The notes: generated from the sequence alone by a model not told the origin. Numbered from the stretch's first letter, positions 9,104 through 61,350 are shown. The stretch: DNA of 64,000 nt from Microgenomates group bacterium (GCA_049303675.1 JBAQNJ010000001.1:890001-954000); one strand, 5' to 3'. Made by a program: numbers and translations.

Positions 9104-9916
9104 ATGAACCGTTCTCGGATACTTTTCTTATCTCTTCTCTTGTTAGGATTATCATTTATTGGCGGTTACTGGCTCAGTCTCAGACAATCATCAAAATCAA
9201 AAGACACCACCCACAACTACCTTACCGTCCGTTCAACTCGACCAGAACTCCAATTTTTTATAACTAGTTTTTGCCCCTCTGCTAATCAGGTTGAAGATAT
9301 ATTACAATCCGTTTACAGCTTACTTTCTGCCAGGGCAGATTTTGTTCCCCATTATATCTTTAAAAAAATTACCAATCTTTCCGAATATTGTACCACCACC
9401 CAACCCCAAAATAAGAATTGCTTGGTTCAAAATAACTATCTAAAGTCACAAGAAAACATCTATTACACCTCACTTTATGGACGCCAAGAAACCAATCAAA
9501 ATATTCGTGAGCTTTGTGCTTGGAAACAGGTTGGTGACGACAAAAAACCATGGTGGACTTTTGTCAATTTAGTCAATAAAAATTGTCGCGTCAATAACGC
9601 CGACAACTGCTGGGAAGAGCAGGGCAGGCAAGCTGGTCTAGACACCTATAAAATTACCGAGTGTTTTAACCAAAATGCCTTTACCCTCGTCGAAAGTGAA
9701 ATAGCCACCTCTGCCAAATATAATATTACCAGTACACCTTTTATAATAGTTAACAATATTAATATAATCCCCGAAACTGGCACTAATTCCTATCGTACTC
9801 CCAATATTCTCAAAGAGATTATTTGTAAATCAATGACCCGTGAAGCCCGTGAGTGTGCCACAATTTTACCCGAAATTACCGGCACCACTCCCTCCACCGG
9901 TGGTTGTGGTTACTAA
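9104..9916 (+). CDS. hypothetical secreted/membrane-anchored Cys-rich protein
   Basis: 270 aa; N-terminal hydrophobic anchor; about 12 Cys spread through a likely extracytoplasmic domain. Confidence 0.5.
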   Translation: MNRSRILFLSLLLLGLSFIGGYWLSLRQSSKSKDTTHNYLTVRSTRPELQFFITSFCPSANQVEDILQSVYSLLSARADFVPHYIFKKITNLSEYCTTTQPQNKNCLVQNNYLKSQENIYYTSLYGRQETNQNIRELCAWKQVGDDKKPWWTFVNLVNKNCRVNNADNCWEEQGRQAGLDTYKITECFNQNAFTLVESEIATSAKYNITSTPFIIVNNINIIPETGTNSYRTPNILKEIICKSMTREARECATILPEITGTTPSTGGCGY

Positions 9917-42169: not shown

Positions 42170-42832
42170 TTACTTATTTTGTAAACACTTTATCCGATCA
42201 ATGCTATTGACCACCCCATTCTTGTCGTAATCAACATTCCCCATACAGGCACTAGTCGGCACAGACGATGTCGGCATCGGCGTAGTTTTCGAACTACATT
42301 TAATAAAATCAATCGAATTGATGACACCATCATTGTTGTAGTCCACCGTTCGACTACACCCATTGCCATTTGTCGGCACTGGAATAGTGGATGGTGCTAC
42401 AGTAATTGCCGGCTTGCTCGGATCTGGCATATTTGTCGCTGGCTTGGTTTTAAAGGAAAATGGAATACCACTGTTATCATACACTTCCTCCCCCACCCTA
42501 ATTCTAAAGTAATAACTCGTGGCCGGTTTTAACGGATTAATAGTTACTTTGTGACTCACTGTGCTATCCGATTCCAAACTACGCAACAACAAACTTGCCG
42601 GAGTTGTTCCATATTCCACTACCGCTTGAATTGCCTTATCAGTCTGCCAGGTAATTGTCACACTTTTACCATCATCCGCTGGAGTGGCCAAGACTGATTT
42701 TGGCTCAGACCCAGCTGAGGCTCCGCTCAAATATGTTTGAATAGTGCTCATTCCCAAATAGCTCAACACTCCCACCAAACCCAAGATTGTCATCACAATC
42801 ACTGTTTTTACACTGACTTTTCCACTTTTCAT
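42170..42832 (-). CDS. membrane-anchored surface protein with FN3-like module and a dockerin-like repeat pair
   Basis: 220 aa; signal anchor; ITWQTD...YGTT...YYFRIR FN3-like block; two Ca-loop repeats VDYNNDGVINSIDFIKC and VDYDKNGVVNSIDRIKC. Confidence 0.6.
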   Translation of the reverse strand: MKSGKVSVKTVIVMTILGLVGVLSYLGMSTIQTYLSGASAGSEPKSVLATPADDGKSVTITWQTDKAIQAVVEYGTTPASLLLRSLESDSTVSHKVTINPLKPATSYYFRIRVGEEVYDNSGIPFSFKTKPATNMPDPSKPAITVAPSTIPVPTNGNGCSRTVDYNNDGVINSIDFIKCSSKTTPMPTSSVPTSACMGNVDYDKNGVVNSIDRIKCLQNK

Positions 42833-43518
42833 AGTAATCCAAAAAACACTGCTGACAGTATGCTGACTAGCCCGAACACTACCAAAATTACTGTATTTTC
42901 AATCACTCCAGTCTGAGGTAATGCAGTAGTCGTTGCCGGCACTGGAGTAGCCGTGGCCACCGCAGTCGTATCCCCACCTGTACCTGCTGCAATAGTATAT
43001 GATCCACTCTGGTTAGCAGTACAATCAACCACGTCATTTCCCGTTTGGGAGATAATATTCGTCTCTACCACTGATCCTGCGAGACAAGTGTAATTAAATG
43101 TAGCCGTCCCCACCGCTTTTGGTTTAAAAGTTACTTTTAGTAATTCATGCTTGGCCACATTGCCTGTCAGTACACTCTGATTAAGTGGTGTTAGGGTTAC
43201 TTCAAAAACTCCGGTATCATTGTGAATAATTGCCTGACCACTAGTATATGAAAACAAATAGCCATCATCAGGGATCACCCCTTTCTCAATCGAAACTACT
43301 TCCAGTTTTGAACTGTCGAAGCTCGCCTTAATATCTATTCCCACCACTTTTTCTGTATCTGAATCAACTCCCATTACCACAGTAAAATTTTGACCCACAG
43401 TTTGACTACCGCTTGCTGGTGTCAGAGTAAAATGGGGAGTGGCATAGGCCATTATTGGCATAGCCAAGGCAATTACCCCACTGGCAACCATCGACCCCAT
43501 TAGTTTCTTTAAGTTCAT
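42829..43518 (-). CDS. cohesin-like domain protein with C-terminal LPXTG cell-wall sorting signal
   Basis: 229 aa; signal peptide; GQNFTVVMGVDSDTEKVVGIDIKASFDSSKLEVVSIEKG resembles the cohesin core; C-terminus LPQTG + hydrophobic helix. Confidence 0.6.
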   Translation of the reverse strand: MNLKKLMGSMVASGVIALAMPIMAYATPHFTLTPASGSQTVGQNFTVVMGVDSDTEKVVGIDIKASFDSSKLEVVSIEKGVIPDDGYLFSYTSGQAIIHNDTGVFEVTLTPLNQSVLTGNVAKHELLKVTFKPKAVGTATFNYTCLAGSVVETNIISQTGNDVVDCTANQSGSYTIAAGTGGDTTAVATATPVPATTTALPQTGVIENTVILVVFGLVSILSAVFFGLL

Positions 43519-43519
43519 T

Positions 43520-44134
43520 TTACTCAGTTACATTAATCATTAATTTATTGGCAGAAAAGGTCAGCGATTTACTAGTTCCATTCTCTACAATCATAGTAGC
43601 AGATTCTTTCATTTCTTTACCAGTACTTATTTCAAAACTCGAAGTGCCTGACTTGAGCATTTTTGCCTTGAAACTCAACAAAACTAGTTCATCTTTTGCA
43701 GGTAACAACAACCCTTTTGGACTCGAGATCAAATAATTGGCAACCAAAAGACTTCTCAGTGTACTCACCTTACTAAATGCTGGCTCTGGCAGTTTTTTAT
43801 CAAATTCCAATGTTTTGACATCGACCGCATTTGGATCATATTTTACATACACATTTACCGAATCCAGAGACTTCTCGACTTTACCCAACATTGACACTTT
43901 GACATCAACACTTTCTCCGACTTTGGCATCAGCCACATCACTTGATATCACTATCTGATAATCCTCATCACCAGTCTTTGCCACTGGTTCGCTGGTCACA
44001 ACTGGAGCAACAACAGCCGGTACAACCACCACTGGTTTTTTGTCATTAGCTCTACTAATCAATAGTACACTTTCCGCCAACACAATTACGGCGATTACTG
44101 GAACAAGATATTTTAATAAATTATTTTGATTCAT
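43520..44134 (-). CDS. membrane-anchored cohesin-like domain protein
   Basis: 204 aa; N-terminal TM anchor, PV-rich linker, YQIVISSDVADAKVGESVDVKVSML...VNVYVKYDPNAVDVKTLEF cohesin-like block. Confidence 0.5.
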   Translation of the reverse strand: MNQNNLLKYLVPVIAVIVLAESVLLISRANDKKPVVVVPAVVAPVVTSEPVAKTGDEDYQIVISSDVADAKVGESVDVKVSMLGKVEKSLDSVNVYVKYDPNAVDVKTLEFDKKLPEPAFSKVSTLRSLLVANYLISSPKGLLLPAKDELVLLSFKAKMLKSGTSSFEISTGKEMKESATMIVENGTSKSLTFSANKLMINVTE

Positions 44135-44148
44135 ATATTTTATAACTT

Positions 44149-45528
44149 CTAATACAACTGTCCTTGCTTAACACTCAACGACAGCATCATGTTTGACAAA
44201 TCCTGTGATTCCATTTTGCAGTTTCCATTCATGTCTGCCGTCATGTATCCACCATCAGCCACTTCAGTTCTCTTCACTGCTTCAGATTTGATATAAGAGA
44301 AATCCAATCCGTCTACCACCCCATCCTGAACATTATTGGATCCCGTCACATCTCCCATCAATAATGGGTATTTTGTAAAATCAAATCCCTTTGTAGTGTC
44401 TAAGTTATTGGTCAAACCCGATAATTCACCTCCAGCTTGGTTATAAAATACGTCTTGACCATCTTTACCATATTTTACTTGTAAACTCTTTGGACTTTTT
44501 ATAAATACAGAAATATTATCTTTAAAATCAAAACCAGTTAAAGGAACATATACTCCATATACTCCACCACCAACAATTCTTGCCATAATATTTGAATAAG
44601 TCTTATTTACACCAGTTGCAGAACGAACAGTAACAGATAACGGGGTTTTATCAGCAGTTGCACATTTTGCATTCTCATCTACACCATAAAACCTCATTCT
44701 AAAATAGAGCATCAAATCACTACTACTCACTGGCGTAGTTGGAGTCACGCTAGGGCACTTGGTCATATCAGTTGTCCATTGGCCATCTTTGACAGGACAA
44801 CAATAATTAATGTTGTTACACGGCTCTACTCTCCCGGCAGTATTACAAATACTATCTTTACTGGTGCCATCACCATCGGGTGGAGTACAACTTTTTAAAA
44901 TTCCATCACTCGCCGGACATGCCTGATGACAGGTTGGCGGGATTGTTGGTAATACCACCTCTTCTCCTACTGTATAGCTGGCTGCAGTAACCGATGTTAC
45001 TTCCAAACTATTGTCAGTTGCCCCAGCCGATGGGTTATAGCCACCCACCTTAGTGTTTGCCTGTTTTATGGTTATTTGACCACTTGCTTGCGCCACAGCA
45101 TCAAACTTGATATCAGCAATTTTTACCATCCCCGACTTAAGATCTGTTGGCTTCATAGTTGCCCCTGCCAATGCCACAATCCGCACACAGTTATTGTTTA
45201 GACTCACATCCACCAAATCTTTCAAGACTGCAGTATTTAAAATAACCTGACTCTCTAAATTATTGGCATCAAGTGACAAGCCATTACCATAACAAACTAC
45301 AGTATCAATCGAGCTAACCTTGGCTCCATTAGCAGTCTCCATAAATAATTGAACATTTGCCTTCTCCCCCACACCCCCCAATATAGATTCAGGTTGTAGC
45401 AATAATTTTGTACCCGCAAAATAGGCGCCCCTCTCTGTATTAGCATTTTGTCTAACAAGTAGTACTCCTCCCACTAGGGCAGCCATCATCAGTATCGAAA
45501 ACAAGATGTTTATTTTTTTATTATTCAT
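44149..45528 (-). CDS. large secreted modular protein (cohesin-like N-domain, Cys-rich middle, dockerin-like C-terminus)
   Basis: 459 aa; signal anchor; ANVQLFMETANGAKVSSIDTVVCYGNGLSLD block; Cys-rich segment; C-terminal GDVTGSNNVQDGVVDGLDFSYIKS and ADMNGNCKMESQDLSNMMLSL repeats. Confidence 0.5.
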   Translation of the reverse strand: MNNKKINILFSILMMAALVGGVLLVRQNANTERGAYFAGTKLLLQPESILGGVGEKANVQLFMETANGAKVSSIDTVVCYGNGLSLDANNLESQVILNTAVLKDLVDVSLNNNCVRIVALAGATMKPTDLKSGMVKIADIKFDAVAQASGQITIKQANTKVGGYNPSAGATDNSLEVTSVTAASYTVGEEVVLPTIPPTCHQACPASDGILKSCTPPDGDGTSKDSICNTAGRVEPCNNINYCCPVKDGQWTTDMTKCPSVTPTTPVSSSDLMLYFRMRFYGVDENAKCATADKTPLSVTVRSATGVNKTYSNIMARIVGGGVYGVYVPLTGFDFKDNISVFIKSPKSLQVKYGKDGQDVFYNQAGGELSGLTNNLDTTKGFDFTKYPLLMGDVTGSNNVQDGVVDGLDFSYIKSEAVKRTEVADGGYMTADMNGNCKMESQDLSNMMLSLSVKQGQLY

Positions 45529-45539
45529 ATTTTTATCCT

Positions 45540-47564
45540 TTAAAATAATTCACTAAAATATTTTTGCCACAAAGAGAAGTCGTAAACATCTACTACTCCG
45601 TCACATTTGCCCTTAGGTCCAGTGAAATCAGCATTCCAATTTTTACTGGAATCTGCTCCCTTGTTGCCATCAAAGAACTCTTTGTGCCAGAGCGAATAAT
45701 CGGTAACGTCGATACTCCCATCACAGTTGGCATCACCCTTGCCTTTACCCTTAAACGTTGGCTTGGTCACACCACTACACTTTGCCTCGGCCACTTTGGT
45801 GAATCCATTCATAGCATAGCCATTCACAAACCATTGGTATTCATTACCATTCTGGTAACAATTGAATACTTTGGGACACTCCTTACAGCTATTATTTCCA
45901 CCACCATTACCCCCTGGAGTCGCCGTTGGCTTTATTGTCGGAGTATTGGTAGCTGTATTGCCACCAGATCCCCTAGTTGGAGTGGCTGTTGCCCGGGGAG
46001 TAGCTGTTGCTACAATTCTACCGCACGAATTTGGACATAGTTTTCCATTATCTGGCTGAACGGCTGCACTCGACTTCCAACATTGGCCAGAATTACAATT
46101 ATCTGCACAATAACAGCTAGTCACTCTCGTCGGCGTCGCTGTTGGAATTTTTGTGGGAGTATTGGTAACCACACATACCTTGATTCCAGCCTGTGTTTTT
46201 CCGCAATTATCCACGCAAGTTTGACCAGTACATGTTGCCCTTGAACAAACTCCATTTGTGACACATGAAGAGACACAAGTATATGTTCCTCTATCAGCGA
46301 TACCAGAGTGAACACAGGTTTCACCAGACTTACACGCTGGACTACATCCTTCCACTGGTGGCTTTGGTGTCGATGTAGGGGTCCCTGGCAAACAAGTACA
46401 TGCTCCACCAGCCACCCCAGAACAATATCCAGCCGTCGATCCTCTCATACACGTATCCCCTGGTGCTTTATTTGAACAAAATCCTTCACTTGTCCACGAA
46501 TTACATTTTGTTGGTTTTGTCGGTGTAGCTGTAGGAGTACATGTCCCCACATCAACCCAATGTGACCATGGAGCGCCACTCGTTGTACTTGTTTGACAAA
46601 CACTTTTTCGACCACCCTCACATTTCGTGGCACCTCCGCTACATTCATTAATTAATATTGTCGGTGTTGGAGATCCACAAGCAGTAGTTGTTTTTTTATA
46701 ACGGCAGCTACTAAACAATACACATTCGCACACTTGTTGTAATCCGTCGACACATCTTGAGGCTGAATTATTCCAACTACAAGCCATAGGGTCAACAGTC
46801 GGTTTTGGAGTATTAGTTGGCAATGCGCCACACCCAGTTCCAGTTACCCAACCAACAGGATAAAGTCCTTCTGTAAACCAACCACATTCTTTACCAGAAG
46901 ATAAGTTTGTCGAACAGTAACATTTTTGAGGAATTGGCGTCGCTGTTGGCTTCGGAATTGTTGGTGTAGAGGTGGGCATAGGGGCACAATTCGTACCATC
47001 CGCTGCACACTTACCCGAAACACAAGGTGAAAAATATTGTGGAGTATTATTATAAGCAAGACATGTGTACAAACTCCCTTTATCACAAATTCTTCCTGTA
47101 GTGTTGCCGGTACATTTAGTTGGGTTTACGGTAGGAATAATTGTCGCGACCTGTTTTGGAGTGGCAGTTGCCGCCGTACATACTTTTGTCCCCTGAACTG
47201 TTTTTCCGCAATTATCCACACAAGTTTGATTTGAACAGGTTGCCTTGGCACAAGTTCCGTTAGACACACAACCGGCTGGTTTGGGTGTTGCTGTGGCTGC
47301 AAGCTTTTTCGTAGGAGTGGCTGTCGGAGGTTTGGTACCGGGAACAATACACTTATATCCAGTCTGTGCACTACAAATCATCCCATCATAACAGGCAGGA
47401 CATGACGCTGCTTTACCCTGATTCGCTTGATTTTGTTGTGACAGTTGTGTGGCCACTGGTATTGCCAATGCCATTAGTAGTAGTCCAATCATTAGAGGAA
47501 TTTGGGCTAATCCATCCTGTTTACTCAGTAATCCAATCAGTTTCTTCAAAATTTTGTTTATCAT
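45540..47564 (-). CDS. large Cys/Thr/Pro-rich secreted protein with internal repeated Cys modules and C-terminal dockerin-like repeat pair
   Basis: 674 aa; N-terminal hydrophobic anchor; module C..NGTC..ATC..QTCVDNCGKT..G.KVC occurs twice; PT-rich linkers; C-terminal DANCDGSIDVTDYSLW and GKCDGVVDVYDFSLW. Confidence 0.55.
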   Translation of the reverse strand: MINKILKKLIGLLSKQDGLAQIPLMIGLLLMALAIPVATQLSQQNQANQGKAASCPACYDGMICSAQTGYKCIVPGTKPPTATPTKKLAATATPKPAGCVSNGTCAKATCSNQTCVDNCGKTVQGTKVCTAATATPKQVATIIPTVNPTKCTGNTTGRICDKGSLYTCLAYNNTPQYFSPCVSGKCAADGTNCAPMPTSTPTIPKPTATPIPQKCYCSTNLSSGKECGWFTEGLYPVGWVTGTGCGALPTNTPKPTVDPMACSWNNSASRCVDGLQQVCECVLFSSCRYKKTTTACGSPTPTILINECSGGATKCEGGRKSVCQTSTTSGAPWSHWVDVGTCTPTATPTKPTKCNSWTSEGFCSNKAPGDTCMRGSTAGYCSGVAGGACTCLPGTPTSTPKPPVEGCSPACKSGETCVHSGIADRGTYTCVSSCVTNGVCSRATCTGQTCVDNCGKTQAGIKVCVVTNTPTKIPTATPTRVTSCYCADNCNSGQCWKSSAAVQPDNGKLCPNSCGRIVATATPRATATPTRGSGGNTATNTPTIKPTATPGGNGGGNNSCKECPKVFNCYQNGNEYQWFVNGYAMNGFTKVAEAKCSGVTKPTFKGKGKGDANCDGSIDVTDYSLWHKEFFDGNKGADSSKNWNADFTGPKGKCDGVVDVYDFSLWQKYFSELF

Positions 47565-47697
47565 TCTAAAATATTTGTCTACTAATACAAAAAGTTAACC
47601 ACTTTTCCCCTAGCTGGTCAATATATCAATTATATTCAGCCACTATATCATCAGCTTTTATTCAGAATTATTTGTTCTATATTTTGTATACTAAATT

Positions 47698-49032
47698 ATG
47701 AAAAGCCGCTGGAACCTAGTTAAAACCATACTATTAGTAGTAATGTTACCTTTTGTTATATTGGCCGTCAAAAAAGTCTACGACCTGCGCAAAAGTGCTG
47801 CCGGCACCCCTGCTGACATTGTCATTGATGTCAAAAGTCGTCAGGGACCAGTCCCCTCGACTCTCTGGCAAAATTTATCCCAAGGCGGTGAAGAGCCCCT
47901 CGATATGATCAAGCCAGTGATTGGGCAAATTCGCACCCTCTCCCCCAAGCTAATTCGCATCGACCATATTTTTGATTACTTCAAAGTCGATCAAGGTAAT
48001 GGTAAATATGATTTCTCTCGACTCGACGAAGCCGTCAACAGTATCCTCCTTACCGGTGCTCGTCCTATGCTCTCAATCTCCTACACCCCAGACTCCAAAG
48101 CGCCCAGTGACTGGAATCAATGGTCCGCCCTAGTCCGCGCTACCGCCCGTCATTATTCAATTGATAAAAAAATAGACGGTATCTATTATGAAGTCTGGAA
48201 TGAGCCCGATCTTTTTGGCGGCTGGCATTACGCCCGCGACCCCAATTACTCGACACTATATATATATACTTCTCGAGCCATAGTCGAGGGTGCCTCCGGC
48301 ACCAGCTTTAAAGTCGGTGGCCCCGCCATTACTGCCTACTACAGTAACTGGATCAAATCTCTTTTTGCTACCGCCAAGACTAACCAGCTTCGACTCGATT
48401 TTATATCCTGGCACAAATACAGCAAAGATATCGAAGATTACAATGCTGATTTTGAAAACCTCAACACAATTTTGTCCGATTATCCCCAATATTTTGATAT
48501 CGAACGAATCATCACCGAGGTAGGACCCAATCCCGAGCCCGATGCCTGGTACGACAATAACCTCTCTGGTATTCACCTTATTGCCTTGTCTACCAATTTA
48601 GTAGGTAAAATTCATCGTATCTTTACTTTTGAACCAATCGACGGCCCCACCCCTCGATCTGCTGTCTCCACCGGCTGGGGAATTATCAGCCACGACCTAA
48701 AACCTAAGCCTCGTTTTTACGCCCTCCAGTTTCTCAACCAGCTCACCGGCACTCAATTATCCTCCACTGGCAACGGCTCTTGGGTTAGTAGTCTCGCCTC
48801 GCTCGACAAAAATATTATCAAAATATTAATTGTAAATTATGATAAAAACCTCACTCATGCCGAGACTTTCCCGTTAACTATTCAAAACCTCGAAATAGGC
48901 AACTATCAGATGAAAACTACCAGATATATGGGCAAATCTACCACCAAAAAAATCACCACTACCCATAATTATCGGGAAATGATCTATCTCGAGCCCAACA
49001 CCGCCATTTTGATTGAATTAACCAAAATATAA
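47698..49032 (+). CDS. membrane-anchored clan GH-A glycoside hydrolase (GH39/GH5-like (beta/alpha)8 enzyme)
   Basis: 444 aa; N-terminal TM helix; YEVWNEPD (acid/base Glu in the NEP motif) and IITEVG (nucleophile Glu) at the positions expected for clan GH-A. Confidence 0.6.
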   Translation: MKSRWNLVKTILLVVMLPFVILAVKKVYDLRKSAAGTPADIVIDVKSRQGPVPSTLWQNLSQGGEEPLDMIKPVIGQIRTLSPKLIRIDHIFDYFKVDQGNGKYDFSRLDEAVNSILLTGARPMLSISYTPDSKAPSDWNQWSALVRATARHYSIDKKIDGIYYEVWNEPDLFGGWHYARDPNYSTLYIYTSRAIVEGASGTSFKVGGPAITAYYSNWIKSLFATAKTNQLRLDFISWHKYSKDIEDYNADFENLNTILSDYPQYFDIERIITEVGPNPEPDAWYDNNLSGIHLIALSTNLVGKIHRIFTFEPIDGPTPRSAVSTGWGIISHDLKPKPRFYALQFLNQLTGTQLSSTGNGSWVSSLASLDKNIIKILIVNYDKNLTHAETFPLTIQNLEIGNYQMKTTRYMGKSTTKKITTTHNYREMIYLEPNTAILIELTKI

Positions 49033-52979: not shown

Positions 52980-55139
52980 TTATTTGGGCCAAAATTGGGT
53001 TTGATCCCGAACAGAAGATCCGTCAGGATTAATCAACACCAAGTGTAAATGAGTCCAATCACTATCCCCTATGTTTCCCATTAAACAAATGGCCTGTCCC
53101 CAAACTACAACATCACCTTCTGTGACGTAATTCCTATCACAGTGGTATGATGCCTGTTTACGCCCTGAACTATTGGTGATTTCCAGATATGGCGTTCCAT
53201 TTTCATAGACTCCAATTCTAGAAACTGTTCCATTGAGCATAGAAAGTACATCAACTTGGTCTTCAGATGACGGTCGGTGATCTGATTTCCAATAATCCCA
53301 TCCACATTCATTAATGAGATTGCAATGAAAATCATTACCACCAATCGCCGCAGTCCCCATAACATACACCGACGGACCGCCATTCAGCGCAAATCCACAA
53401 AATGCCAATGGATCGGAGCAAAGAATGTTATCAGCAGCCATTACACTAGTGATATCTACTGTCGGTAGTGGTGCCAAATCAACTCCTCCAGCTTGCGCCA
53501 GTATAGACTGATACTGATCCCAAACCGATCCGGACTGATCCCAACCATCATAGGCTGCCGAACCAGGAGTACCATGGTTCCAAACCAGTCCACCATCTTG
53601 GCCAGTGAATCTATTTTGAAAATCCGATTTTGTCGTCTGTTCAAAAAACCGCAGTTTCTTGAACATTCTATATGCCGCCCGAGCAGAATCATGTAGATCC
53701 CACTTGTTCCAACTAGTCTCAGAATAATCCGGCCAAGTTGTCGGCATAAATTGGAATGGTCCCTGCGCTCCAGCAGAAGAAGTGCAAGTGTTAAAATCTG
53801 CTCTAGCACATTCGGAACGCTGTACAGCATACAATAAAGCAGCTTCCCGAGCCGTACCTCCCTCTTCGTTTACCGCCTTCAGAATTGGTTCCCATACTAT
53901 TGGAATTACCACTCCTTCAGGTAATTTTGCCAGTGGTGCACCAGACCAAATTACTGGATCAGGGTTAGGATTTTGCGCCCAGACTGGAATCTCAGGAATA
54001 TCTTCCCCTGAATTAGCCCAGACAATCGGCACCCACATAATCCCAAACGTCACTACGTAGGCTACGTAGCAACCGACTATTAGGACTAGTACCAGTTCCT
54101 TAGTCAAATCTAAAAACCAAGGTATGTGCTTTTCCAATCCAGTGTTCAAAATAAATTTCTTTCCCCAGTCTCGTAGCTTTTGGATGACCCAAATTTGGAC
54201 TGATATACCAGTAAACATCCAAAGTACTTCGTCCTTTAACCAAAAACTTACTATCATTAAAACAACAGTAAGCCACCAATAAGCAACTAAGATTTTAGAC
54301 TTCTTATAGACAGTCTTTTTTCCCAGTTGTTTCTCCAACAAATAAACCTTGCGGTTCATCGACCAAACTTTAACTGCAGCAATTAAAACTAAAATCATTG
54401 CCACCGCAAAGATTACTTTGGTTGTACCAGTCTGGTCTAAGATATTTTTTAGATCAGGACTAGTTTGAGTCGGAATTTCCGACGAGGTTTTAATTACTAC
54501 CCCATTTGGAAGCAGAGTTGACTCCACACTTGGTGTTTGTATTACTTTGGTCTCTCCCTCAATTTCTACCCATATCGTCAGGACATGTTCATTAATCATC
54601 CATCGGATAACGGCATCTTTACTCAGCTCATTTTTCAACTCAAGATCTTGGTCATAGTTACCAGTTGACTCATTTTGGAAAATCGAGTTAGCATAGTGAC
54701 CGTCATAGGGCAGTACAGGAAGCTGAACATGATTATCAGTTGATCTAGTGGACTGTAAGCCATTCATCTCGGCCACGTAGTGGACAATTGAAGCTACGTC
54801 ACAAACTCCCAGCGCAGGCATCCAAGACATATCTTTTTTTTGTAATGTCTTGTATCCGCTATCTGCCATTTGGCCAATTCTAGCACCAAAACTTTGAGAA
54901 ACACCACCAGCTGGAATCACCCATTCATTCTGACCATGGCCCAAATTTTGAAAACCATAAACGATATTATTTTCATAATCTGGCCAATCATAGTAGTCAA
55001 GACGAACAGTACAAACTCCTGACTCATCGCAACTAATCAAGTCTGCTGCCTTCGCCAAATTTACACTCAGCGGGGAAAAACACGACGCCACCAAAACGAA
55101 CATGGTGGTTAAAACGAGAATTAAATTATTTCGTTTCAT
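52980..55139 (-). CDS. multi-domain cell-wall hydrolase: VanW-like domain + TM segments + lytic transglycosylase (SLT) + M23 peptidase
   Basis: Start placed at ATG 55137-55139, preceded by GGAGGTG; signal peptide; VanW-like GVCDVASIVHY..; SLT motif AGAQGPFQFMPTTW; M23 motif GDSDWTHLHLVLINPDG. Confidence 0.7.
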   Translation of the reverse strand: MKRNNLILVLTTMFVLVASCFSPLSVNLAKAADLISCDESGVCTVRLDYYDWPDYENNIVYGFQNLGHGQNEWVIPAGGVSQSFGARIGQMADSGYKTLQKKDMSWMPALGVCDVASIVHYVAEMNGLQSTRSTDNHVQLPVLPYDGHYANSIFQNESTGNYDQDLELKNELSKDAVIRWMINEHVLTIWVEIEGETKVIQTPSVESTLLPNGVVIKTSSEIPTQTSPDLKNILDQTGTTKVIFAVAMILVLIAAVKVWSMNRKVYLLEKQLGKKTVYKKSKILVAYWWLTVVLMIVSFWLKDEVLWMFTGISVQIWVIQKLRDWGKKFILNTGLEKHIPWFLDLTKELVLVLIVGCYVAYVVTFGIMWVPIVWANSGEDIPEIPVWAQNPNPDPVIWSGAPLAKLPEGVVIPIVWEPILKAVNEEGGTAREAALLYAVQRSECARADFNTCTSSAGAQGPFQFMPTTWPDYSETSWNKWDLHDSARAAYRMFKKLRFFEQTTKSDFQNRFTGQDGGLVWNHGTPGSAAYDGWDQSGSVWDQYQSILAQAGGVDLAPLPTVDITSVMAADNILCSDPLAFCGFALNGGPSVYVMGTAAIGGNDFHCNLINECGWDYWKSDHRPSSEDQVDVLSMLNGTVSRIGVYENGTPYLEITNSSGRKQASYHCDRNYVTEGDVVVWGQAICLMGNIGDSDWTHLHLVLINPDGSSVRDQTQFWPK

Positions 55140-55414
55140 ATCACCACCTCCTTGATGGTTGTTTGGGTTTATCCGTCTGCAGGCTGCAGCCGGTTTAAAA
55201 ATTAGGCCCACGGCCTTAAACATGGCTGCACCTCCTTTTCTTTATTTAGGTAGCCAGTCGAATAACCCATAATTAGTTACTCAATTGGCTACCTAAAGTT
55301 TGTTTTGTCTTATTGTTAAAGAGCTAGAGATTAGCTTCGGATGCAAAAATATCCGTCAATCTCCGATAGGATTATATCATAAATACCCTATAATAGCAAA
55401 TTATTTACAAATTT

Positions 55415-57001
55415 CTAAGTATTGTATTGGCTAGATCTTCGGTTCAATACTGTTATAACTTTGTCTGCCAATTCCTCGGATTTATATTTACTAGCTATAA
55501 TATCTCTAATTCTTTGTTTATCCACAGGGGTTGACTTTGCAAATAATTTTAAGTTATTTTCATCAATTCTTGAAAAACCAGCAGACTGTAATATCTCATC
55601 ATCATTTTTTTCCAGCTTATCTACAATAGAAATTGCTTCTTTTACTACCTCGGAATGTCTTGGCAAAACAGACATGTCCCTTCTAGCTAGTGCGATTTCT
55701 TCTAGACAATAAGTTTGTTCATCTTCATCAATATGCGGAATAGCAGCCGTTAATTGTTTTACTCTTTCACCCCCACGTCGGGCACTACCCGTTACCCGTC
55801 CGATACCATTCGCAGCACTTACTACGTCAGTAACCACCATTACATCTTCTTCATTTGCTCCCGAGCGCTGTACTTTTAATGTACCTGGAGCATGTATTTT
55901 TTCTCTGCCTTTTCTAGTCGCAATATTAAATATCCATTCATTAACTGGCCCCAGTTTTAATCTTCTATCTTTGGCTACAGCTTTTAAATTCTCAAAATGA
56001 GGCGCAATATCTGTCTGTGTTAAAAGTTCAGTTATGTTAGAAGCCACAACTTCATCTTCGACTCCAGTTCTCATATGGACTCTGCCATCTTTTGAAATAT
56101 ATAGTTCTTGTCCACCGGCCAATGATTCCATTAATTGAAATCCCTTTGCTCCAAATGCAAACGCGGCCAACTGTTGCAAAAACCCCGATTTGACCAAAGT
56201 AACCCCTTCTTTACATTCAGCAACAGCCACGGTGGGATTACCAATTATACCTTTTAACCTAGTTACTTCTTCTCTCAATAACGCCCTTTGACCAACTTCA
56301 TATACTATTTCTGCCTTTCTTTGGGACAATGTATTTTCAACCTCTTTGCGAATCGATATTTCACTTAAAACTGGCTGCAAAGTTGAAACAATATTTGCCG
56401 CCATCTCCCGTTCAACATCTTGTCTTACTCCAGACCTAAACTGTGCCACTTCAGCCGCCGCATGTACTGTACTAATATTTTTACCCAAGACAGCTTCACC
56501 AGCTCTCATTACTTCCACTGGCCGAGATAGCCTAATTTGGGATTCGTTCATTGTTGCATCAATGGCTGATGCCAATCGATTTCTGGCAATCTGTGCTCTT
56601 TGTTGTGATTCCTTCTCACCACCCCATATTACCCCCGCCACCAGATTTCTAGGCCTCAATGCATCAAGACTCCCCAAAATTCCTTTTGGTGCATTATCAA
56701 ATTCCTTCTGCATTTTATCATCATCCGGCAACAAATTTAAACCATTGGCAAAAAATCTATTTAACAATCCACCCCACAGTGCACTTACCGATCTTTTTTC
56801 CACAGCTTGGGCAAATACAACTACCATGTTTTCCTTTGGTCTTACCGGTACAATGGCTACTCCACCCTTATATTCCTGAACATCATATCCATCAGGAACT
56901 TCCACTACACGAGTTTCAGTCTGATCTTGGACTCGTGGCAATCTATTCATCACCGATCCTTCTCCAAACAAATCTGCTTGCAACTGATCTCTCCATGCCA
57001 T
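55415..57001 (-). CDS. hypothetical large protein
   Basis: 528 aa, no TM, no recognisable domain; visually GC-richer than flanks (GC not computed). Confidence 0.5.
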   Translation of the reverse strand: MAWRDQLQADLFGEGSVMNRLPRVQDQTETRVVEVPDGYDVQEYKGGVAIVPVRPKENMVVVFAQAVEKRSVSALWGGLLNRFFANGLNLLPDDDKMQKEFDNAPKGILGSLDALRPRNLVAGVIWGGEKESQQRAQIARNRLASAIDATMNESQIRLSRPVEVMRAGEAVLGKNISTVHAAAEVAQFRSGVRQDVEREMAANIVSTLQPVLSEISIRKEVENTLSQRKAEIVYEVGQRALLREEVTRLKGIIGNPTVAVAECKEGVTLVKSGFLQQLAAFAFGAKGFQLMESLAGGQELYISKDGRVHMRTGVEDEVVASNITELLTQTDIAPHFENLKAVAKDRRLKLGPVNEWIFNIATRKGREKIHAPGTLKVQRSGANEEDVMVVTDVVSAANGIGRVTGSARRGGERVKQLTAAIPHIDEDEQTYCLEEIALARRDMSVLPRHSEVVKEAISIVDKLEKNDDEILQSAGFSRIDENNLKLFAKSTPVDKQRIRDIIASKYKSEELADKVITVLNRRSSQYNT

Positions 57002-57003
57002 AA

Positions 57004-57711
57004 TTAGTTTTTGTCGTTTAACTCAATAACTGTCGCCCCATTTCTAGCTTTTGATTGTCGTTTTTCTTTCATATTTGCATATACATCCCCACCTTTTTTC
57101 CATACGTACTTTAGCCCTTTTCCTACCTGATTGCTCACTCCCCTACCAATTTCCACAGTCTTTCCGGCAACATAACTACCAACCACCGCAGCAGTCTCCT
57201 TAATTTTTTCATTTCTAGCTTGACGTCTTTCTACTTCTTCCACCGTCACTCCCAAAGCTTCCAGTGGACTGTTCATATCTCTAAAAAATCCTACCCCCGC
57301 TCTTGACATATCCTCAACCATATCAGGTGCAATATTCGCCAAAATTGTCGCTTTAACGACCGAACTAATTGACTCACCTGAATTACCACCTGTCATTACA
57401 ACAACTTGTTCACCTTTTTCATTGGTAGACAAAGCATATCCAACAGGCAAGGAAATATCTGTTACTAGATCACTTAGAGCTCTTCTGATAATTCCAGGAC
57501 GTCCATCACCACTTGTATCATACAAAGCTGGATTACCATCTTTTCCTTCACCAACATGATAAACAATTGGTAGTTCAATATCATTTCTCAATCCATCGAT
57601 TGCCGATTTAATATTTCTCACTACTATTCCATCTTGTTTTGGTTGACCATTATTACCTCCCTCGAGGGGTGTAGTTGCATCTTCCATTAATCGATCAAGC
57701 CAGTTTGGCAT
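57004..57711 (-). CDS. hypothetical protein
   Basis: 235 aa; Gly-rich; stop abuts the start of the upstream ORF. Confidence 0.5.
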   Translation of the reverse strand: MPNWLDRLMEDATTPLEGGNNGQPKQDGIVVRNIKSAIDGLRNDIELPIVYHVGEGKDGNPALYDTSGDGRPGIIRRALSDLVTDISLPVGYALSTNEKGEQVVVMTGGNSGESISSVVKATILANIAPDMVEDMSRAGVGFFRDMNSPLEALGVTVEEVERRQARNEKIKETAAVVGSYVAGKTVEIGRGVSNQVGKGLKYVWKKGGDVYANMKEKRQSKARNGATVIELNDKN

Positions 57712-57751
57712 ATTTTTATAATTTTAATAACTTAATAATTTATTTTTTAAT

Positions 57752-57823
57752 ACCATGGTCCCTTGCTTCCTTGTTTGTGGTTCCCCCTCAGGGGGAACCA
57801 CACATTGGAGCTTGGGACCATGG
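57752..57823. repeat. nested GC-rich hairpin element (outer ACCATGGTCCC/GGGACCATGG; inner GTGGTTCCCCC-tc-AGGGGGAACCAC)
   Basis: Read directly; lies downstream of the 57848..58945 gene and next to an AT-rich run, so it may serve as a terminator. Confidence 0.8.
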
Positions 57824-57847
57824 ATTTGACACCATGGTTGAAAAATA

Positions 57848-58945
57848 TTACTGAGCCGTGCCGGCGAAGACGCAGACATCTTTGTCTCCATACTTCACCA
57901 TCAGCATGTCATTGCTTCTTAAATATGTGGTCCAGGCCGCGCCGACGAACAATTGGACCGAGGTAACTGATGTATTATTAGGAATTGTTCCGTCATGATT
58001 TTGATCAATTCCAACGCAGGTCGGGTTTCCCGCACCATCAGTTGAAGAGGTGTAATACCAAGCACCCTTGTTGTCCGACGTGTCGTTAATCGTAACCAAT
58101 TTATCCCCAGGGTTGGGATCGGGCTGAACATTCACGTTCGGATCGGACTGAGAGGTGGTGTTGGGATCGGGTTGCTTGACGATAGGGTCGGGTTGAGTGG
58201 TTATTGTTGTAACACAACCTTGGCAGATTGTTTCCCACTTACCTGTTCCTGTGAACGAAAAGCCGTTTCGGTCCGCAGATACACCGAGATTGCGGGCAAT
58301 ATTACCATTGACTGAAAATACAATTGGAGTTACCCAACTTTCGTCAAAATTGATGGCAATATCCCAGTTCTCGTTGTCCTTTCCAGCGGTAGCGCAATTC
58401 GAACATTTCCCTGACACAACCCCTTTTATCGGGAACATAGCCGGCCCGAGTGCAGGAGGTGCATTTTGTGGTTGAAGACTTCCACCCATAAGGACAGTGA
58501 AATCCTTCAACCAAGTTGTGCCGGCATCTGAGAGTACTGTAACGGTAACATTCGGCAGCAAACTTTGCTGACCTCCTGTTACATCAGTTCCTGCTGGCGC
58601 CGCATAGGTTGTTCCACCTCCAGAATTACTTGAGGAAGAACTTTCAACCATTGCGTAGCCCGGCAAGCCATTGCAATACTGTCCGCCATATCTTTTACAT
58701 GCCTTGGCCTGTACCGAATCGGCACCGCCAATGGCTGAGTCAGTCCATAATCCGGGTCCATACCGGACGATTAGTGGACCTACGATGAACACGATACCTA
58801 GGGTAAAAAGTACACCCTTTTTGTGAGTGGTAAGCAGGGCCCAAGCGAACATGACAATGGCCAGTACCACAAACCAACCCACGAGCGGAGCGATGCTATT
58901 TGAAGCACCTTCCCATCCTGCTCTTAAACTTCCAATTAGATCCAT
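57848..58945 (-). CDS. hypothetical membrane-anchored protein with QPDP repeats
   Basis: 365 aa; two N-terminal TM helices; Gly/Ser/Thr-rich extracytoplasmic part; QPDPIVKQPDPNTTSQSDPNVNVQPDPNPGD; visually GC-richer than flanks (GC not computed). Confidence 0.55.
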   Translation of the reverse strand: MDLIGSLRAGWEGASNSIAPLVGWFVVLAIVMFAWALLTTHKKGVLFTLGIVFIVGPLIVRYGPGLWTDSAIGGADSVQAKACKRYGGQYCNGLPGYAMVESSSSSNSGGGTTYAAPAGTDVTGGQQSLLPNVTVTVLSDAGTTWLKDFTVLMGGSLQPQNAPPALGPAMFPIKGVVSGKCSNCATAGKDNENWDIAINFDESWVTPIVFSVNGNIARNLGVSADRNGFSFTGTGKWETICQGCVTTITTQPDPIVKQPDPNTTSQSDPNVNVQPDPNPGDKLVTINDTSDNKGAWYYTSSTDGAGNPTCVGIDQNHDGTIPNNTSVTSVQLFVGAAWTTYLRSNDMLMVKYGDKDVCVFAGTAQ

Positions 58946-59261
58946 GATCCTATCTCCTTTTCTATTTTTTGAAAAACCACAATTTTACTTCAATTACACA
59001 ACCCAAGCACCCAATCTCCCGATAGCTATCGGGGGGCTCAGTGCTTGAGTCGTGTATCCATAGTGTCAAATTTTTAAAGTGCCTTGAGGTTTTACCCTCA
59101 ATTTACTAAAAAAGCCCTCAAATATTGCCAATTAAATGGCGTTATTTAGGACTCTGTGATGTTCTACTTTGCAGCGCATTGCTACATTTATTAACATGAA
59201 CGTTTATACACCTCTGTTACACATTTGTCAATAATATAAGATATTCCAACCTCAACCTGAC

Positions 59262-59486
59262 TCAAAGCAGTTTATTTGTCTCCGAATCTATCACCACATC
59301 TAGATATTTTCCTTTGCCATTTTGGGGCAATCTCGAAATAATCGGTCGATTATTTTTTTCTTTATCATCATCACTAGGTTGAATTTCCGGCCCTACAAAT
59401 TGTTCGGGAGTCCACTTTTTTGGATTCCGAGCATAATCCCGTGGGATTTGTTGCTTGATTTTCTTCAACACATCTTCATTTGGCAT
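59262..59486 (-). CDS. hypothetical small protein
   Basis: 74 aa, Lys/Asp-rich. Confidence 0.3.
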   Translation of the reverse strand: MPNEDVLKKIKQQIPRDYARNPKKWTPEQFVGPEIQPSDDDKEKNNRPIISRLPQNGKGKYLDVVIDSETNKLL

Positions 59487-59670
59487 TATTTGTAGTTGGC
59501 AACACTATCAACTTACTTACACCGTTCCCCTTATCTTCTTGCCTTTTCAAGTGTTCTTCATGAGTTAGTTGTGGCTGTGGTTTTTTCTTCTCCGGCTTTC
59601 TCACCTCAACCGGCGCACCAAACATATTTTCTTGTACCAATTTTGCCTTGTCTTGTTGTTCTCCTGCCAT
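59476..59670 (-). CDS. hypothetical small protein
   Basis: 64 aa; overlaps the next ORF by 11 nt. Confidence 0.3.
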   Translation of the reverse strand: MAGEQQDKAKLVQENMFGAPVEVRKPEKKKPQPQLTHEEHLKRQEDKGNGVSKLIVLPTTNNAK

Positions 59671-59707
59671 AATTTATTTTACTCCTCTCTTAGTCTAATT
59701 GACAATT

Positions 59708-59941
59708 TTATCCAAATATTTTTTTCATTAATGATGGAGAACGCAAAATTGGCTCATCATAATTAGTCACCACTTCAATTCTTTTTATACTTTTACTATT
59801 TACCAGTGCCTCCAAACAGCTATCACAGACATTTATCCTAGCCATTCTGTTTGGTCCTGCCGAGAACATCACCCTCTTTGTCGAGGGCTTGTTGCAATGC
59901 AGATACCAGAACAAAAATTTTTCACTTGGTACATCACACAT
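59708..59941 (-). CDS. hypothetical small Cys-containing protein
   Basis: 77 aa; HC...C..C spacing suggests a zinc ribbon; AATTACGAATT-type motif directly upstream. Confidence 0.4.
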   Translation of the reverse strand: MCDVPSEKFLFWYLHCNKPSTKRVMFSAGPNRMARINVCDSCLEALVNSKSIKRIEVVTNYDEPILRSPSLMKKIFG

Positions 59942-59984
59942 ATTTTGTAATTCGTAATTAGTAATTCGTAATTATTTTAATTAA
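59942..59984. promoter_or_regulatory. AATTCGTAATT tandem motif directly upstream of the 59708..59941 start
   Basis: attttgtaattcgtaattagtaattcgtaattattttaattaa. Confidence 0.35.
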
Positions 59985-60079
59985 CCTGCAAATATCGTTT
60001 TGTCCGCCCGAGGCGGCTTATTTTTCTTGTTTTCTCGTGTTGTGGCAGACCCTTGCGGGTCCGCCACTTCTTTACACGA

Positions 60080-60247
60080 TTACGCCTTCGGTTTTTCAAC
60101 AACCGTCTTTACTACGACAGTTGTTGCAGCCGGTTGTCGAGTGACCTTATTAAGAGAAACACCTTCATTTGGTCGAATGTTCTTGCCAGGAACTTTTTGA
60201 GAAACGACAACAAGTTTCTCAGTACCTTTCTGAGGAATCGGAGTCAT
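60080..60247 (-). CDS. hypothetical small protein (below the 60-aa track cutoff)
   Basis: 55-aa ORF MTPIPQKGTEKLVVVSQKVPGK... found by manual translation; starts 2 nt after the stop of 60250..60465, with AAGGTGGA 5 nt upstream; followed by stem-loops at 60040-60066 and 60015-60030. Confidence 0.3.
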   Translation of the reverse strand: MTPIPQKGTEKLVVVSQKVPGKNIRPNEGVSLNKVTRQPAATTVVVKTVVEKPKA

Positions 60248-60249
60248 TT

Positions 60250-60465
60250 CTATCCACCTTGTTGAGTGGGCTGGGGGCGGATGGCGGTTACATCAGCAGT
60301 TGACTTTCCAGCCTTCGGAGTGGCCAGATGGGTCTTCGTCCCAGGGGGAGTTGTTGCAACCCCAGGAACATTGGCCGGCACGCCCGCCTTCAAAAATTCA
60401 TTGAGCGTCATATATTGCGGATGAACATTCACTGGTACTATGGTCTTACCATTCACAGTTGGCAT
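60250..60465 (-). CDS. hypothetical small Pro/Thr/Gly-rich protein
   Basis: 71 aa; similar in style to the downstream 55-aa ORF. Confidence 0.3.
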   Translation of the reverse strand: MPTVNGKTIVPVNVHPQYMTLNEFLKAGVPANVPGVATTPPGTKTHLATPKAGKSTADVTAIRPQPTQQGG

Positions 60466-60870
60466 GATTTTTTACCTTATCCTTTTTTCAATATAGTTTT
60501 TTTTCGACGACGACGGGAAAAAATTATTTTTCCTTCAATAGGGCCTCCTTTTTCTATTTTTCACTTCCAATGAGTGAAATTTAATCAACCCGCCTTAGGC
60601 GGACTAATTAAATTTCACTCAAAAGTGCCTCAGATAAGTTACGAGGCAGTCCGAACGCTTTCGGACAATTAAAATAAAATGGGGGTTTACGATACTTGCA
60701 GGTTGTTAGAGAACCTTCTCTACAACCTCCGCTTCTCAGTTTCCATACCGCAACGGTGTGTCGCGGACTGCTGTTTCGAATTAGGGCTAGAATAGCACAA
60801 CTTATCCAAAAAATCTACACACATATTACTCATATAATTTTAGTAGGAGTTAGATAACAAATTTGCATCC

Positions 60871-61236
60871 CTATCTTGGCAACTTTATTTTGATCACCTG
60901 ATACACATTCAACATTTTATCCAGCATACTAGCTTCTTCAGTTCCCATATTTTGACTTTTTCCAGCGTATTTTTGGGCCAATAAATTTTCGGCACTGGTT
61001 CCCTGTCTCACTTGTATCGAGTGCCCTAGTCTACTCATAATCTCATGATTTACTCCCCCTTGGGACTCGAATGCTGCCAATTCTGCCCGTGTCCCCATCA
61101 CATCAGCCAATAATTCTTTTGGTATCTGTGGGATAATTCCACTTCCAAATTTTTCCAGCTCCCGTCTCCACTTTCTCACCCCTTTTTGATGATGTCTATC
61201 TGGTGCATCCTTAAATCTATTTGCCTGATTGCTCAT
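60871..61236 (-). CDS. hypothetical protein
   Basis: 121 aa; basic N-terminus. Confidence 0.4.
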   Translation of the reverse strand: MSNQANRFKDAPDRHHQKGVRKWRRELEKFGSGIIPQIPKELLADVMGTRAELAAFESQGGVNHEIMSRLGHSIQVRQGTSAENLLAQKYAGKSQNMGTEEASMLDKMLNVYQVIKIKLPR

Positions 61237-61320
61237 AGCCCCATCATATCCTCAATTATTTTTTTATAAATCCCTATCATCTTTTTTTTAAAAGATTTAT
61301 AATTAAAACTCACCTCCTCT

Positions 61321-61350
61321 AATTCCTAATTCTTAATTCCTAATTTTTAA
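61321..61350. promoter_or_regulatory. AATTCCTAATT tandem motif between divergent genes
   Basis: aattcctaattcttaattcctaatttttaatt; a variant of the AATTCGTAATT family. Confidence 0.3.

Follow-up and report, generated by a model that had tools for sequence, protein, structure and literature searches.

Among described cohesin-dockerin assemblies, a close counterpart of the locus reported here is found in Ruminococcus flavefaciens, in which ScaE, an LPXTG wall-anchored protein with a single cohesin, is anchored by sortase. ScaE is the cell-surface cohesin that tethers ScaB (PMC5429695). It receives a dyad of X module and dockerin both from the adaptor/scaffold protein and from the non-enzymatic adhesin CttA. 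In Clostridium thermocellum, the CohI9-X-DocII fragment of CipA (PDB 3kcp and 4fl4) presents cohesin, Ig-like X module, and dockerin in that order, and its dockerin is bound to the type II cohesin that a wall-anchored protein carries. The closest structural relatives of the modules described below also include non-cellulosomal cohesins, from Archaeoglobus fulgidus (2xdh), for which no operon-level system is defined, and from Clostridium perfringens (2vo8, 2w1n, and 2o4e), where such modules join large glycosidases in the GH33/GH84 toxin complex. Here we analyze a gene cluster at positions 42170-49032 of a 64,000-nucleotide (nt) stretch of DNA (the window) from a Microgenomates group bacterium (GCA_049303675.1, JBAQNJ010000001.1:890001-954000); it comprises five genes, which we named P5, P4, P3, P2, and P1, and a divergent GH39 glycoside hydrolase gene (Table 1). 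In the reading that we find reasonably likely, the five genes encode a lineage-specific, non-cellulosomal cohesin-dockerin system that builds a protein complex on the outer face of a Gram-positive-type cell belonging to the candidate phyla radiation (CPR; Candidatus Shapirobacteria) and displays variable adhesin-like proteins there.

The gaps between P5 and P4, P4 and P3, and P3 and P2 are 11, 14, and 1 nt, P2 and P1 overlap by 4 nt, and a simple scan revealed no minus-strand terminator inside the five-gene block; because the junctions are short or overlapping, the strand is shared, and no such terminator interrupts it, the layout is that of an operon. Only 28 nt separate P1 from rpsU (S21), which is followed on the same strand by yqeY, ybeY, and dnaX. 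The putative operon encodes three cohesins (P2, P3, and the N-domain of P4) and three dockerin-type modules (the C termini of P1, P4, and P5). Searches with Pfam and family-specific hidden Markov models (HMMs) found no other cohesin or dockerin open reading frame (ORF) in the remaining 57 kb of the window, and no tandem repeats of the phase-variation type occur within the operon.

The five-gene block is syntenic in ∼30 species-level genomes of Candidatus Shapirobacteria, placed by the NCBI taxonomy within the Microgenomates group of Patescibacteria; such conservation excludes chance assembly. The order P5-P4-P3-P2-P1-rpsU-yqeY-ybeY-dnaX-recR is kept in every locus with available sequence, and in another Microgenomates lineage yqeY-ybeY-dnaX-recR is present without the operon. 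A scan of one genome per species detected the P2 family in ∼33 genomes, which are labeled Candidatus Shapirobacteria or Patescibacteria except for several with automated "Gammaproteobacteria" labels that share the same CPR gene context. At 90% identity, the P2 family forms 78 clusters and the P1 family 303. Our family-level tests used positional orthologues from 22 related genomes (n = 23; n = 17 for P5).

An earlier interpretation of this DNA, made from the sequence alone (the sequence-only reading), had described five consecutive minus-strand ORFs for N-terminally anchored or secreted proteins and one divergent ORF in a possibly CPR-like organism. All six ORFs lie where it had placed them, every peptide that it quoted is present, the five proteins are all predicted to be exported, each with an N-terminal hydrophobic helix, and the relatives are Candidatus Shapirobacteria. 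Its module descriptions also held up in the analyses below: a cohesin-like β-sandwich protein ending in LPQTG and a hydrophobic helix (P2), a second cohesin-like protein (P3), a 459-amino-acid (aa) protein with cohesin-like N-domain, Cys-rich core, and dockerin-like C terminus (P4), a 674-aa Cys/Thr/Pro-rich protein with a twice-repeated module and a dockerin-like pair (P5), an FN3-like module with two dockerin-type Ca-loop repeats (P1), and a divergent, membrane-anchored clan GH-A hydrolase with NEP and ITE motifs (GH39). Its conclusion that these genes follow the logic of a cellulosome or amylosome did not survive, as discussed below.

P2 matches the Pfam Cohesin family (PF00963) at 35.7 bits, against a gathering threshold (GA) of 24.1, and its C terminus consists of LPQTG and a 25-residue hydrophobic tail, which matches the sorting-signal profile TIGR01167 at 17.2 (cut-off 15.9). 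The L, P, T, and G of LPxTG are invariant across 22 diverse family members, several of which are annotated by the Joint Genome Institute (JGI) as LPXTG cell-wall-anchored proteins. P3 passes the Cohesin threshold narrowly (24.2 bits); 14 of 23 orthologues match (best E value, 2.3e-7), its top PDB matches are all cohesins but weak, and in hhalign it is related to the transmembrane (TM) helix and cohesin half of P4 with 94.7% probability (E = 6e-8). The N-domain of P4 has no direct match to Pfam Cohesin, and hhalign aligns it with the P2 cohesin at 95.8% (E = 7.7e-9).

An AlphaFold2 (AF2) model of P4 built with 32 homologues has a mean predicted local distance difference test score (pLDDT) of 77, rising to 83-96 within domains. 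In it, residues 4-29 form a TM helix, 39-188 a β-sandwich, 190-233 a Cys-rich insert that is disordered, ∼270-385 another β-sandwich, and 411-419 and 441-458 two C-terminal helices; the β-sandwich and paired helices that the sequence-only reading expected of predicted structures are thus both seen, as is the nine-stranded, flattened β-sandwich (jelly-roll) of a cohesin module. The second sandwich is an Ig-like "X" domain between Cys-rich insert and dockerin, which that reading had not described. The helices accompany Ca loops at residues 393-409, with a 5-residue insertion, and 432-443, with an invariant Cys at position 6 of the second loop. Thirteen of 23 P4 orthologues match Pfam Dockerin_1 (PF00404; best E value, 1.8e-8), and a profile of the C-terminal family (alignment A8) finds 8x39 at 3.8e-9 and the C. 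thermocellum Xyn10B dockerin 1ohz_B at 2.3e-5. In Foldseek searches the top matches of the whole model were 3kcp and 4fl4, the CipA CohI9-X-DocII fragment (full-length, E = 1e-9). From its modelled fold, P4 is a predicted combination of cohesin and dockerin like that of an adaptor scaffoldin. The Cys-rich mini-domain of P4 follows the pattern CP..DG.L.SC.P.DGDGT..DS.CN..GR.E.C...YCCP...G.WTTDM..CP and belongs to no Pfam family. Many P4 orthologues lack it; it recurs in other surface proteins of CPR, namely P0143 and the DUF11-containing P0141, and in several P5 orthologues, where it immediately precedes the dockerin.

P4 thus has the module order of the CipA fragment, and in both the dockerin would bind a wall-anchored cohesin. 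P4 differs in its single cohesin, its N-terminal TM helix, and its Cys-rich insert, and identity is only ∼10%; anchoring here would involve LPXTG rather than SLH domains, with no family 3 carbohydrate-binding module (CBM3) and no enzymes. The likeness to R. flavefaciens lies in a single cohesin predicted to be wall-anchored through LPXTG and in its predicted acceptance of an X-module-dockerin dyad. Unlike that system, the operon has no multi-cohesin scaffoldin, since P2, P3, and P4 have one cohesin each, and no dockerin-bearing enzymes were seen in it; its payload is a hypervariable Cys-rich protein rather than a cellulose-binding one, its host is a CPR bacterium with a genome of ∼1 Mb, and it adds two proteins, P3 with its membrane-anchored cohesin and P1 with FN3 and dockerin. 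In contrast to the C. perfringens toxin complex, the cargo is non-enzymatic, and in contrast to A. fulgidus, there is a dedicated and conserved five-gene operon.

Outside CPR, the nearest relatives of the P2 cohesin are in Anaerolineae (Chloroflexota; L040-L046), at 28-33% identity and HMM E values of 1e-13 to 1e-18. These are likewise single cohesins apparently tethered to peptidoglycan, but through a non-covalent tail that is LysM-like by eye (GDTL..IA.RYG...NLIYPGQVL.IP) instead of LPXTG; they also lie in another gene neighborhood, with no relatives of P1, P4, or P5 nearby. Some of the Anaerolineae cohesin genes (e.g., L045:9932-10930) are directly downstream of genes for proteins of 1400-1700 aa.

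We examined which cohesin might bind which dockerin with a mirror-tree approach, in which pairwise distances for each module in 17 genomes were compared as partial correlations controlling for divergence of DnaX, YbeY, and YqeY. Two pairs stood out: P2 cohesin with P4 dockerin (partial r = 0.52) and P4 cohesin with P5 dockerin (partial r = 0.55), each with a Mantel p of ∼1e-4 and each the best partner in 17/17 jackknifes. Among these 17 genomes, none of the remaining seven cohesin-dockerin pairs was significant after correction for nine tests; they include P3 cohesin with P4 dockerin (partial r = 0.28, p = 0.03) and the cohesin and dockerin that share the P4 polypeptide (partial r = 0.07, p = 0.28). 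The P4 X domain co-varies with the P2 cohesin (0.39), which would fit an X-dockerin dyad contacting its cohesin. This pattern suggests the chain wall-P2(cohesin) <- (X-dockerin)P4(cohesin) <- (dockerin)P5, and agrees with what architecture alone suggests for P2, P4, and P5.

P5 is the variable member. Its positional orthologues range from 201 to 1643 aa with both ends constant; the window protein contains 8.6% Cys, in small Cys-rich modules strung on Thr/Pro linkers, and the two copies of its repeated module share 73% nt identity over 93 nt. One orthologue (alignment A6) has thrombospondin type 1 repeats (TSP_1, E = 1.2e-19), a domain unusual in bacteria. The P5 C-terminal family profile (A7) finds the dockerins 5m2o_B (6.7e-5), 2y3n_B (1.2e-4), and 5lxv_B, in a range of 7e-5 to 3e-4, and Dockerin_1 itself matches 3 of 17 orthologues (best, 2e-9). 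The dockerin loops are DANCDGSIDVTD and ADF[insert]CDGVVDVYD, with an invariant Cys at position 4 of each. Elsewhere in the window (9104-9916) is a gene for an exported thioredoxin-fold protein (VSR_TRX, 43.6 bits), a candidate oxidoreductase for disulfides of Cys-rich surface proteins.

The constant N terminus of P5 is a leader with the consensus of a short basic stretch, Gly, and [LF]-A-Q-I-P-L-[ML]-I..L-L-L-M-A-I-A-V-P-V-A-T-K-L-V-Q-x-N-Q-[DE]-T-R-N-x-A-A. When residues 1-60 were used in an exhaustive search, it turned up in only 107 of 1.84e9 representative clusters, always N-terminal, on proteins of 68-2778 aa. Of these 107, many of which are fragments, at least 65 have a dockerin at the C terminus, 55 of the P5 type and ∼10 of the P4 type; the leader-bearing proteins of L026 and L036 end in the P4 type, not the P5 type. 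In some genomes, a tandem pair of P5-type genes, both with the leader, lies upstream of P4 (L009:461-5748 and L036:5907-8324). Cargo genes therefore appear, from these sequences, to vary in copy number, with leader, middle, and dockerin shuffled. The leader may be a sorting or processing signal that has not been described. GH39 orthologues have a conserved motif after the TM helix, D[LI]RK[SG]AAG.PA, which resembles the post-TM "NQ.TR..AA" of P4 and P5; the resemblance may mark a common processing site of exported proteins in the lineage.

A second cohesin/dockerin locus occurs in a sister Shapirobacteria genome (L047:6638-11083; GCA_016188545.1, JACPHO010000002.1). Its products are a protein in which three knottin-like Toxin_7 repeats are joined to a dockerin (31.4 bits) of the type seen in the operon, a two-cohesin protein that also has a dockerin, a small TM protein, and a cohesin-X-dockerin paralogue of P4. 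The dockerins of this locus, of P5 orthologues, and of the leader-bearing proteins sit on proteins that are predicted to be non-enzymatic and disulfide-rich. The second locus adjoins RimK/ATP-grasp genes, a 7TM_transglut gene, and six T4SS_pilin (PF18895) genes.

P1 exceeds the thresholds of both of its Pfam matches, Pur_ac_phosph_N (FN3-type; 43.3 bits, GA 30) and Dockerin_1 (24.1 bits, GA 22.9); among orthologues, 23/23 match the former and 20/23 the latter (best, 5.5e-8). Its AF2 model (pLDDT 80) contains a TM helix, a confident FN3 domain with fold matches, and two loop-helix units, a disordered linker lying between them, with Ca loops DYNNDGVINSID and DYDKNGVVNSID and helices at residues 173-182 and 210-219. 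Each unit of loop and short helix is bracketed by an invariant Cys pair, C159...C179 and C196...C216. The top PDB matches of the C-terminal profile are dockerins, at weak E values (0.011-0.018). The duplicated, ∼22-residue, EF-hand-like pattern of Ca loop (D/N at positions 1, 3, 5, 9, and 12) and helix is present in P1, P4, and P5, with inserts in P4 and P5. Of the three dockerin assignments in the sequence-only reading, that of P1 is above the Dockerin_1 threshold; P4 (20.0 bits) and P5 (16.8 bits) score below it, as does P5 with NCBIfam dockerin_GC (24.7; threshold, 29). In hhalign, the P5 and P4 classes recognize each other at 38%, P1 and P4 at 46%, and P1 and P5 at 2%. Such weak mutual recognition is what three separate specificities would be expected to show; we read it as divergence into distinct specificity classes and do not count it against their identity as dockerins.

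Together, these data are consistent with the following arrangement. P2, linked covalently to peptidoglycan by sortase, would be the anchoring socket; the X-dockerin of P4 would plug into the P2 cohesin, and the P4 cohesin would in turn receive the P5 dockerin. The variable, disulfide-stabilized modules of P5 would then be exposed at the end of a stalk anchored in the wall, a position that follows from the proposed P2-P4-P5 chain, and their most likely role would be that of an adhesin or of a module recognizing a host cell or particle. P3 may offer the P4 dockerin a second receptor close to the membrane, and P1 (FN3 and Cys-stapled dockerin) and P3 (membrane-anchored cohesin) would be further conserved members.

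Several observations weigh against this arrangement. As to the anchor, P2 in the window and in its nearest relatives has no basic tail (it ends ...FFGLL), while most other orthologues have K or R; its Pfam Gram_pos_anchor score (17.5) is below the GA of 20; and a scan for the TLxTC-type catalytic motif of sortases found nothing credible in the window or in 49 loci related to it. In favor of wall anchoring, one complete Microgenomates genome, Ch65, is reported to encode a sortase (PMC7143001). The P2 family profile has no significant sequence match to a solved cohesin in the PDB, so the cohesin fold is established through P4. As to the dockerins, those of P4 and P5 both fall under the Pfam gathering cut-off, the P4 loops have low pLDDT (∼50-68), and insertions interrupt Ca-loop 1 of P4 and, by 5 residues, Ca-loop 2 of P5; the P1 repeats are atypical in their short helices, Cys-pair closure, and variable linker (∼10-45 residues), and the P1 dockerin co-varies with no cohesin. 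The wiring rests on co-evolution across 17 non-independent genomes, and because the P5 dockerin and P4 cohesin are adjacent on the DNA, linkage or recombination could yield their correlation; the P2 cohesin and P4 dockerin, however, are separated by the P3 gene, yet outscore the physically adjacent pair of P4 dockerin and P3 cohesin. Finally, the N-terminal hydrophobic helices of all five proteins may stay in the membrane, which would impose another geometry, and the proposed adhesin role of P5 derives from its architecture only.

A bolder form of the wall-anchored display model, which we offer as speculation and would not expect to hold in full, is that P2 socket and P4 adaptor form a constant stalk into which a fast-diversifying family of proteins (0.2-2.8 kaa, with knottin-like and TSP1-like disulfide-rich modules), defined by the leader (G followed by LAQIPLMI...KLVQQNQDTRNxAA), is plugged by its dockerins, so that the operon would determine which partner or host an epibiotic CPR bacterium is specific for; as a sorting signal, the enzymatically processed leader would form a class of its own, a new one. 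If such plug-in display is true, recognition modules could be swapped without changing the anchoring machinery.

The most serious alternative to mutual binding, though in our view an unlikely one, is that these cohesin- and dockerin-like folds do not bind each other at all: the sandwiches would be Ig-like stalk domains, and the Ca repeats stabilizers or ligands for components of the host surface or S-layer. Non-cellulosomal cohesin and dockerin sequences are reportedly widespread, most of them without a demonstrated partner, and the atypical P1 dockerin, which lacks co-variation with any cohesin, could be accommodated in this way. Three cohesins and three dockerins, however, are co-encoded in a strictly conserved operon, and such modules are again found together at the second locus; moreover, two specific cohesin-dockerin pairs co-vary while the pair within one polypeptide does not.

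The leader raises another alternative, which we regard as very improbable: P5 would be pilin-like, its leader a class III signal peptide cut by prepilin peptidase between Gly and Leu-Ala-Gln-Ile-Pro, and the operon a tip or accessory complex of a type IV pilus. By our own reading, a short basic N-region, an invariant Gly, ∼20 hydrophobic residues, and an LMI...AIAxP spacing do resemble the α1-N segment of pilins. The resemblance ends with Gly-1 and the hydrophobic stretch, and we rejected the prepilin reading: TIGR02532 and N_methyl (PF07963) gave no match at E ≤ 1 to P5 or 10 other leader-bearing proteins, position +5 is Pro, not Glu, canonical Shapirobacteria pilins look different (SGFTLIELLVV; L026:421-876), and no pilus genes lie in the window or beside the operon.

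The divergent gene encodes a genuine GH39 enzyme. It matches Glyco_hydro_39 (PF01229) at 71.4 bits (GA 26) and β-xylosidases in the PDB at 1.4e-18, with the NEP acid/base aligned, and its catalytic residues E169 (NEP) and E274 (ITE) are invariant in 11 orthologues, in which the N-terminal TM helix is also conserved. It adjoins the operon in ∼12 of the 20 related loci that extend far enough and is absent from ∼8, where rseP or other genes abut P5; neither Pfam nor family-specific HMMs detected a dockerin on it. We regard GH39 as a frequent neighbor with its own predicted membrane anchor, not a docked subunit. Pfam searches found no CBM family at E ≤ 1 in any of the six proteins, and neither a catalytic domain nor a CBM was found on P1, P4, P5, their orthologues in 22 operons, or the dockerin-bearing proteins of the second locus. 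A true cellulosome- or amylosome-like complex docking GH39, or enzymes encoded elsewhere, to capture and degrade polysaccharide would fit the logic of anchoring and adaptor scaffoldins that cohesin, dockerin, and LPXTG share, the intact GH39 next door, and the report that Microgenomates have more glycoside hydrolases than other CPR (PMC7143001), but is the least credible of the readings because the enzyme is undocked and inconstant, the dockerin proteins carry no catalytic domain or CBM, a single cohesin per protein provides no multi-enzyme scaffold, and no further dockerin ORFs occur in these 64 kb of a ∼1-Mb genome.

To our knowledge, how CPR/Patescibacteria attach to and recognize their partners is largely unknown beyond the type IV pili of Saccharibacteria. 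The searchable literature yielded no description of a CPR cohesin-dockerin operon, in keeping with the earlier view that the surface complex was undescribed. As far as that literature shows, three features are new: the fixation, in a CPR lineage, of an operon with the complete set of anchor, adaptor, and cargo, a non-enzymatic hypervariable cargo with a rare leader, and the Cys-stapled dockerin variant of P1. The operon takes up ∼0.5% of the ∼1-Mb genome, and its fixed position beside core translation and replication genes throughout Shapirobacteria makes it probably central to their surface biology. Should wall-anchored display by P2, P4, and P5 be borne out, it would be among the clearest genomic cases of a self-contained cohesin-dockerin system, with anchor, adaptor, and cargo, outside polysaccharide degradation. 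The three divergent dockerin classes, together with the very small Cys-stapled halves of the P1 dockerin, could serve as orthogonal protein-assembly parts.

Table 1. Genes and modules of the cluster; positions are in nt from the start of the window
Feature	Position	Strand	Description
P5	45540-47564	-	674-aa hypervariable surface protein rich in Cys, Thr, and Pro; constant leader, Cys modules like beads on a string, C-terminal dockerin
P5 leader	47409-47564	-	Residues 1-52; basic residues, then G followed by LAQIPLMIGLLLMALAIPVATQLSQQNQ...AA; nearly invariant in P5-position genes
P5 Cys-module copy 1	47178-47270	-	Residues 99-129; CVSNGTCAKATCSNQTCVDNCGKTVQGTKVC
P5 Cys-module copy 2	46173-46265	-	Residues 434-464
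P5 dockerin	45543-45740	-	C-terminal; DANCDGSIDVTDYSLW and ADF..CDGVVDVYDFSLW; two Ca-loop/helix repeats
P4	44149-45528	-	459-aa adaptor-like protein; TM helix, cohesin, Cys-rich insert, Ig-like X domain, dockerin
P4 cohesin module	44959-45423	-	Residues ∼36-190
P4 Cys-rich mini-domain	44755-44940	-	Residues ∼197-258; CHQACPASDG...YCCPVKDGQWTTDMTKCP; variable or absent in orthologues; pLDDT <50
P4 Ig-like β-sandwich	44374-44721	-	X-module-like; precedes dockerin; AF2 strands 272-383, pLDDT 83-93
P4 dockerin	44152-44373	-	C-terminal; GDVTG..QDGVVDGLDFSYIK ... ADMNGNCKMESQDLSNMM; Dockerin_1 20.0 bits, family profile, AF2 helices
P3	43520-44134	-	204-aa single-cohesin protein; N-terminal membrane anchor
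P3 cohesin	43523-43957	-	Residues ∼60-204
P2	42829-43518	-	229 aa; signal peptide, cohesin, Thr-rich linker, sorting signal
P2 cohesin	42979-43440	-	
P2 sorting signal	42832-42921	-	LPQTG
P1	42170-42832	-	220 aa; TM helix, FN3, linker, dockerin-type units
P1 FN3	42443-42703	-	
P1 dockerin-type units	42173-42364	-	Two Cys-bracketed Ca-loop/helix units
GH39 glycoside hydrolase	47698-49032	+	444 aa, membrane-anchored, divergent; neighbor, not core part

Farther along the window (52980-63540) lie minus-strand genes with few family matches, beginning with one for a 747-aa secreted M23 peptidase (52980-55223), which is followed by three encoding proteins without Pfam matches; a VirD4/TrwB-type coupling ATPase is encoded on the plus strand at 61351-63540. 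This region may represent a module for type IV secretion or for a process like conjugation. GC skew is strongly and uniformly negative, with values of -0.05 to -0.38 in every 2-kb interval of the window, and from 16 kb on the minus strand carries nearly all genes, a pattern reminiscent of the strand compositional disparity reported for a complete Microgenomates genome (PMC7143001).

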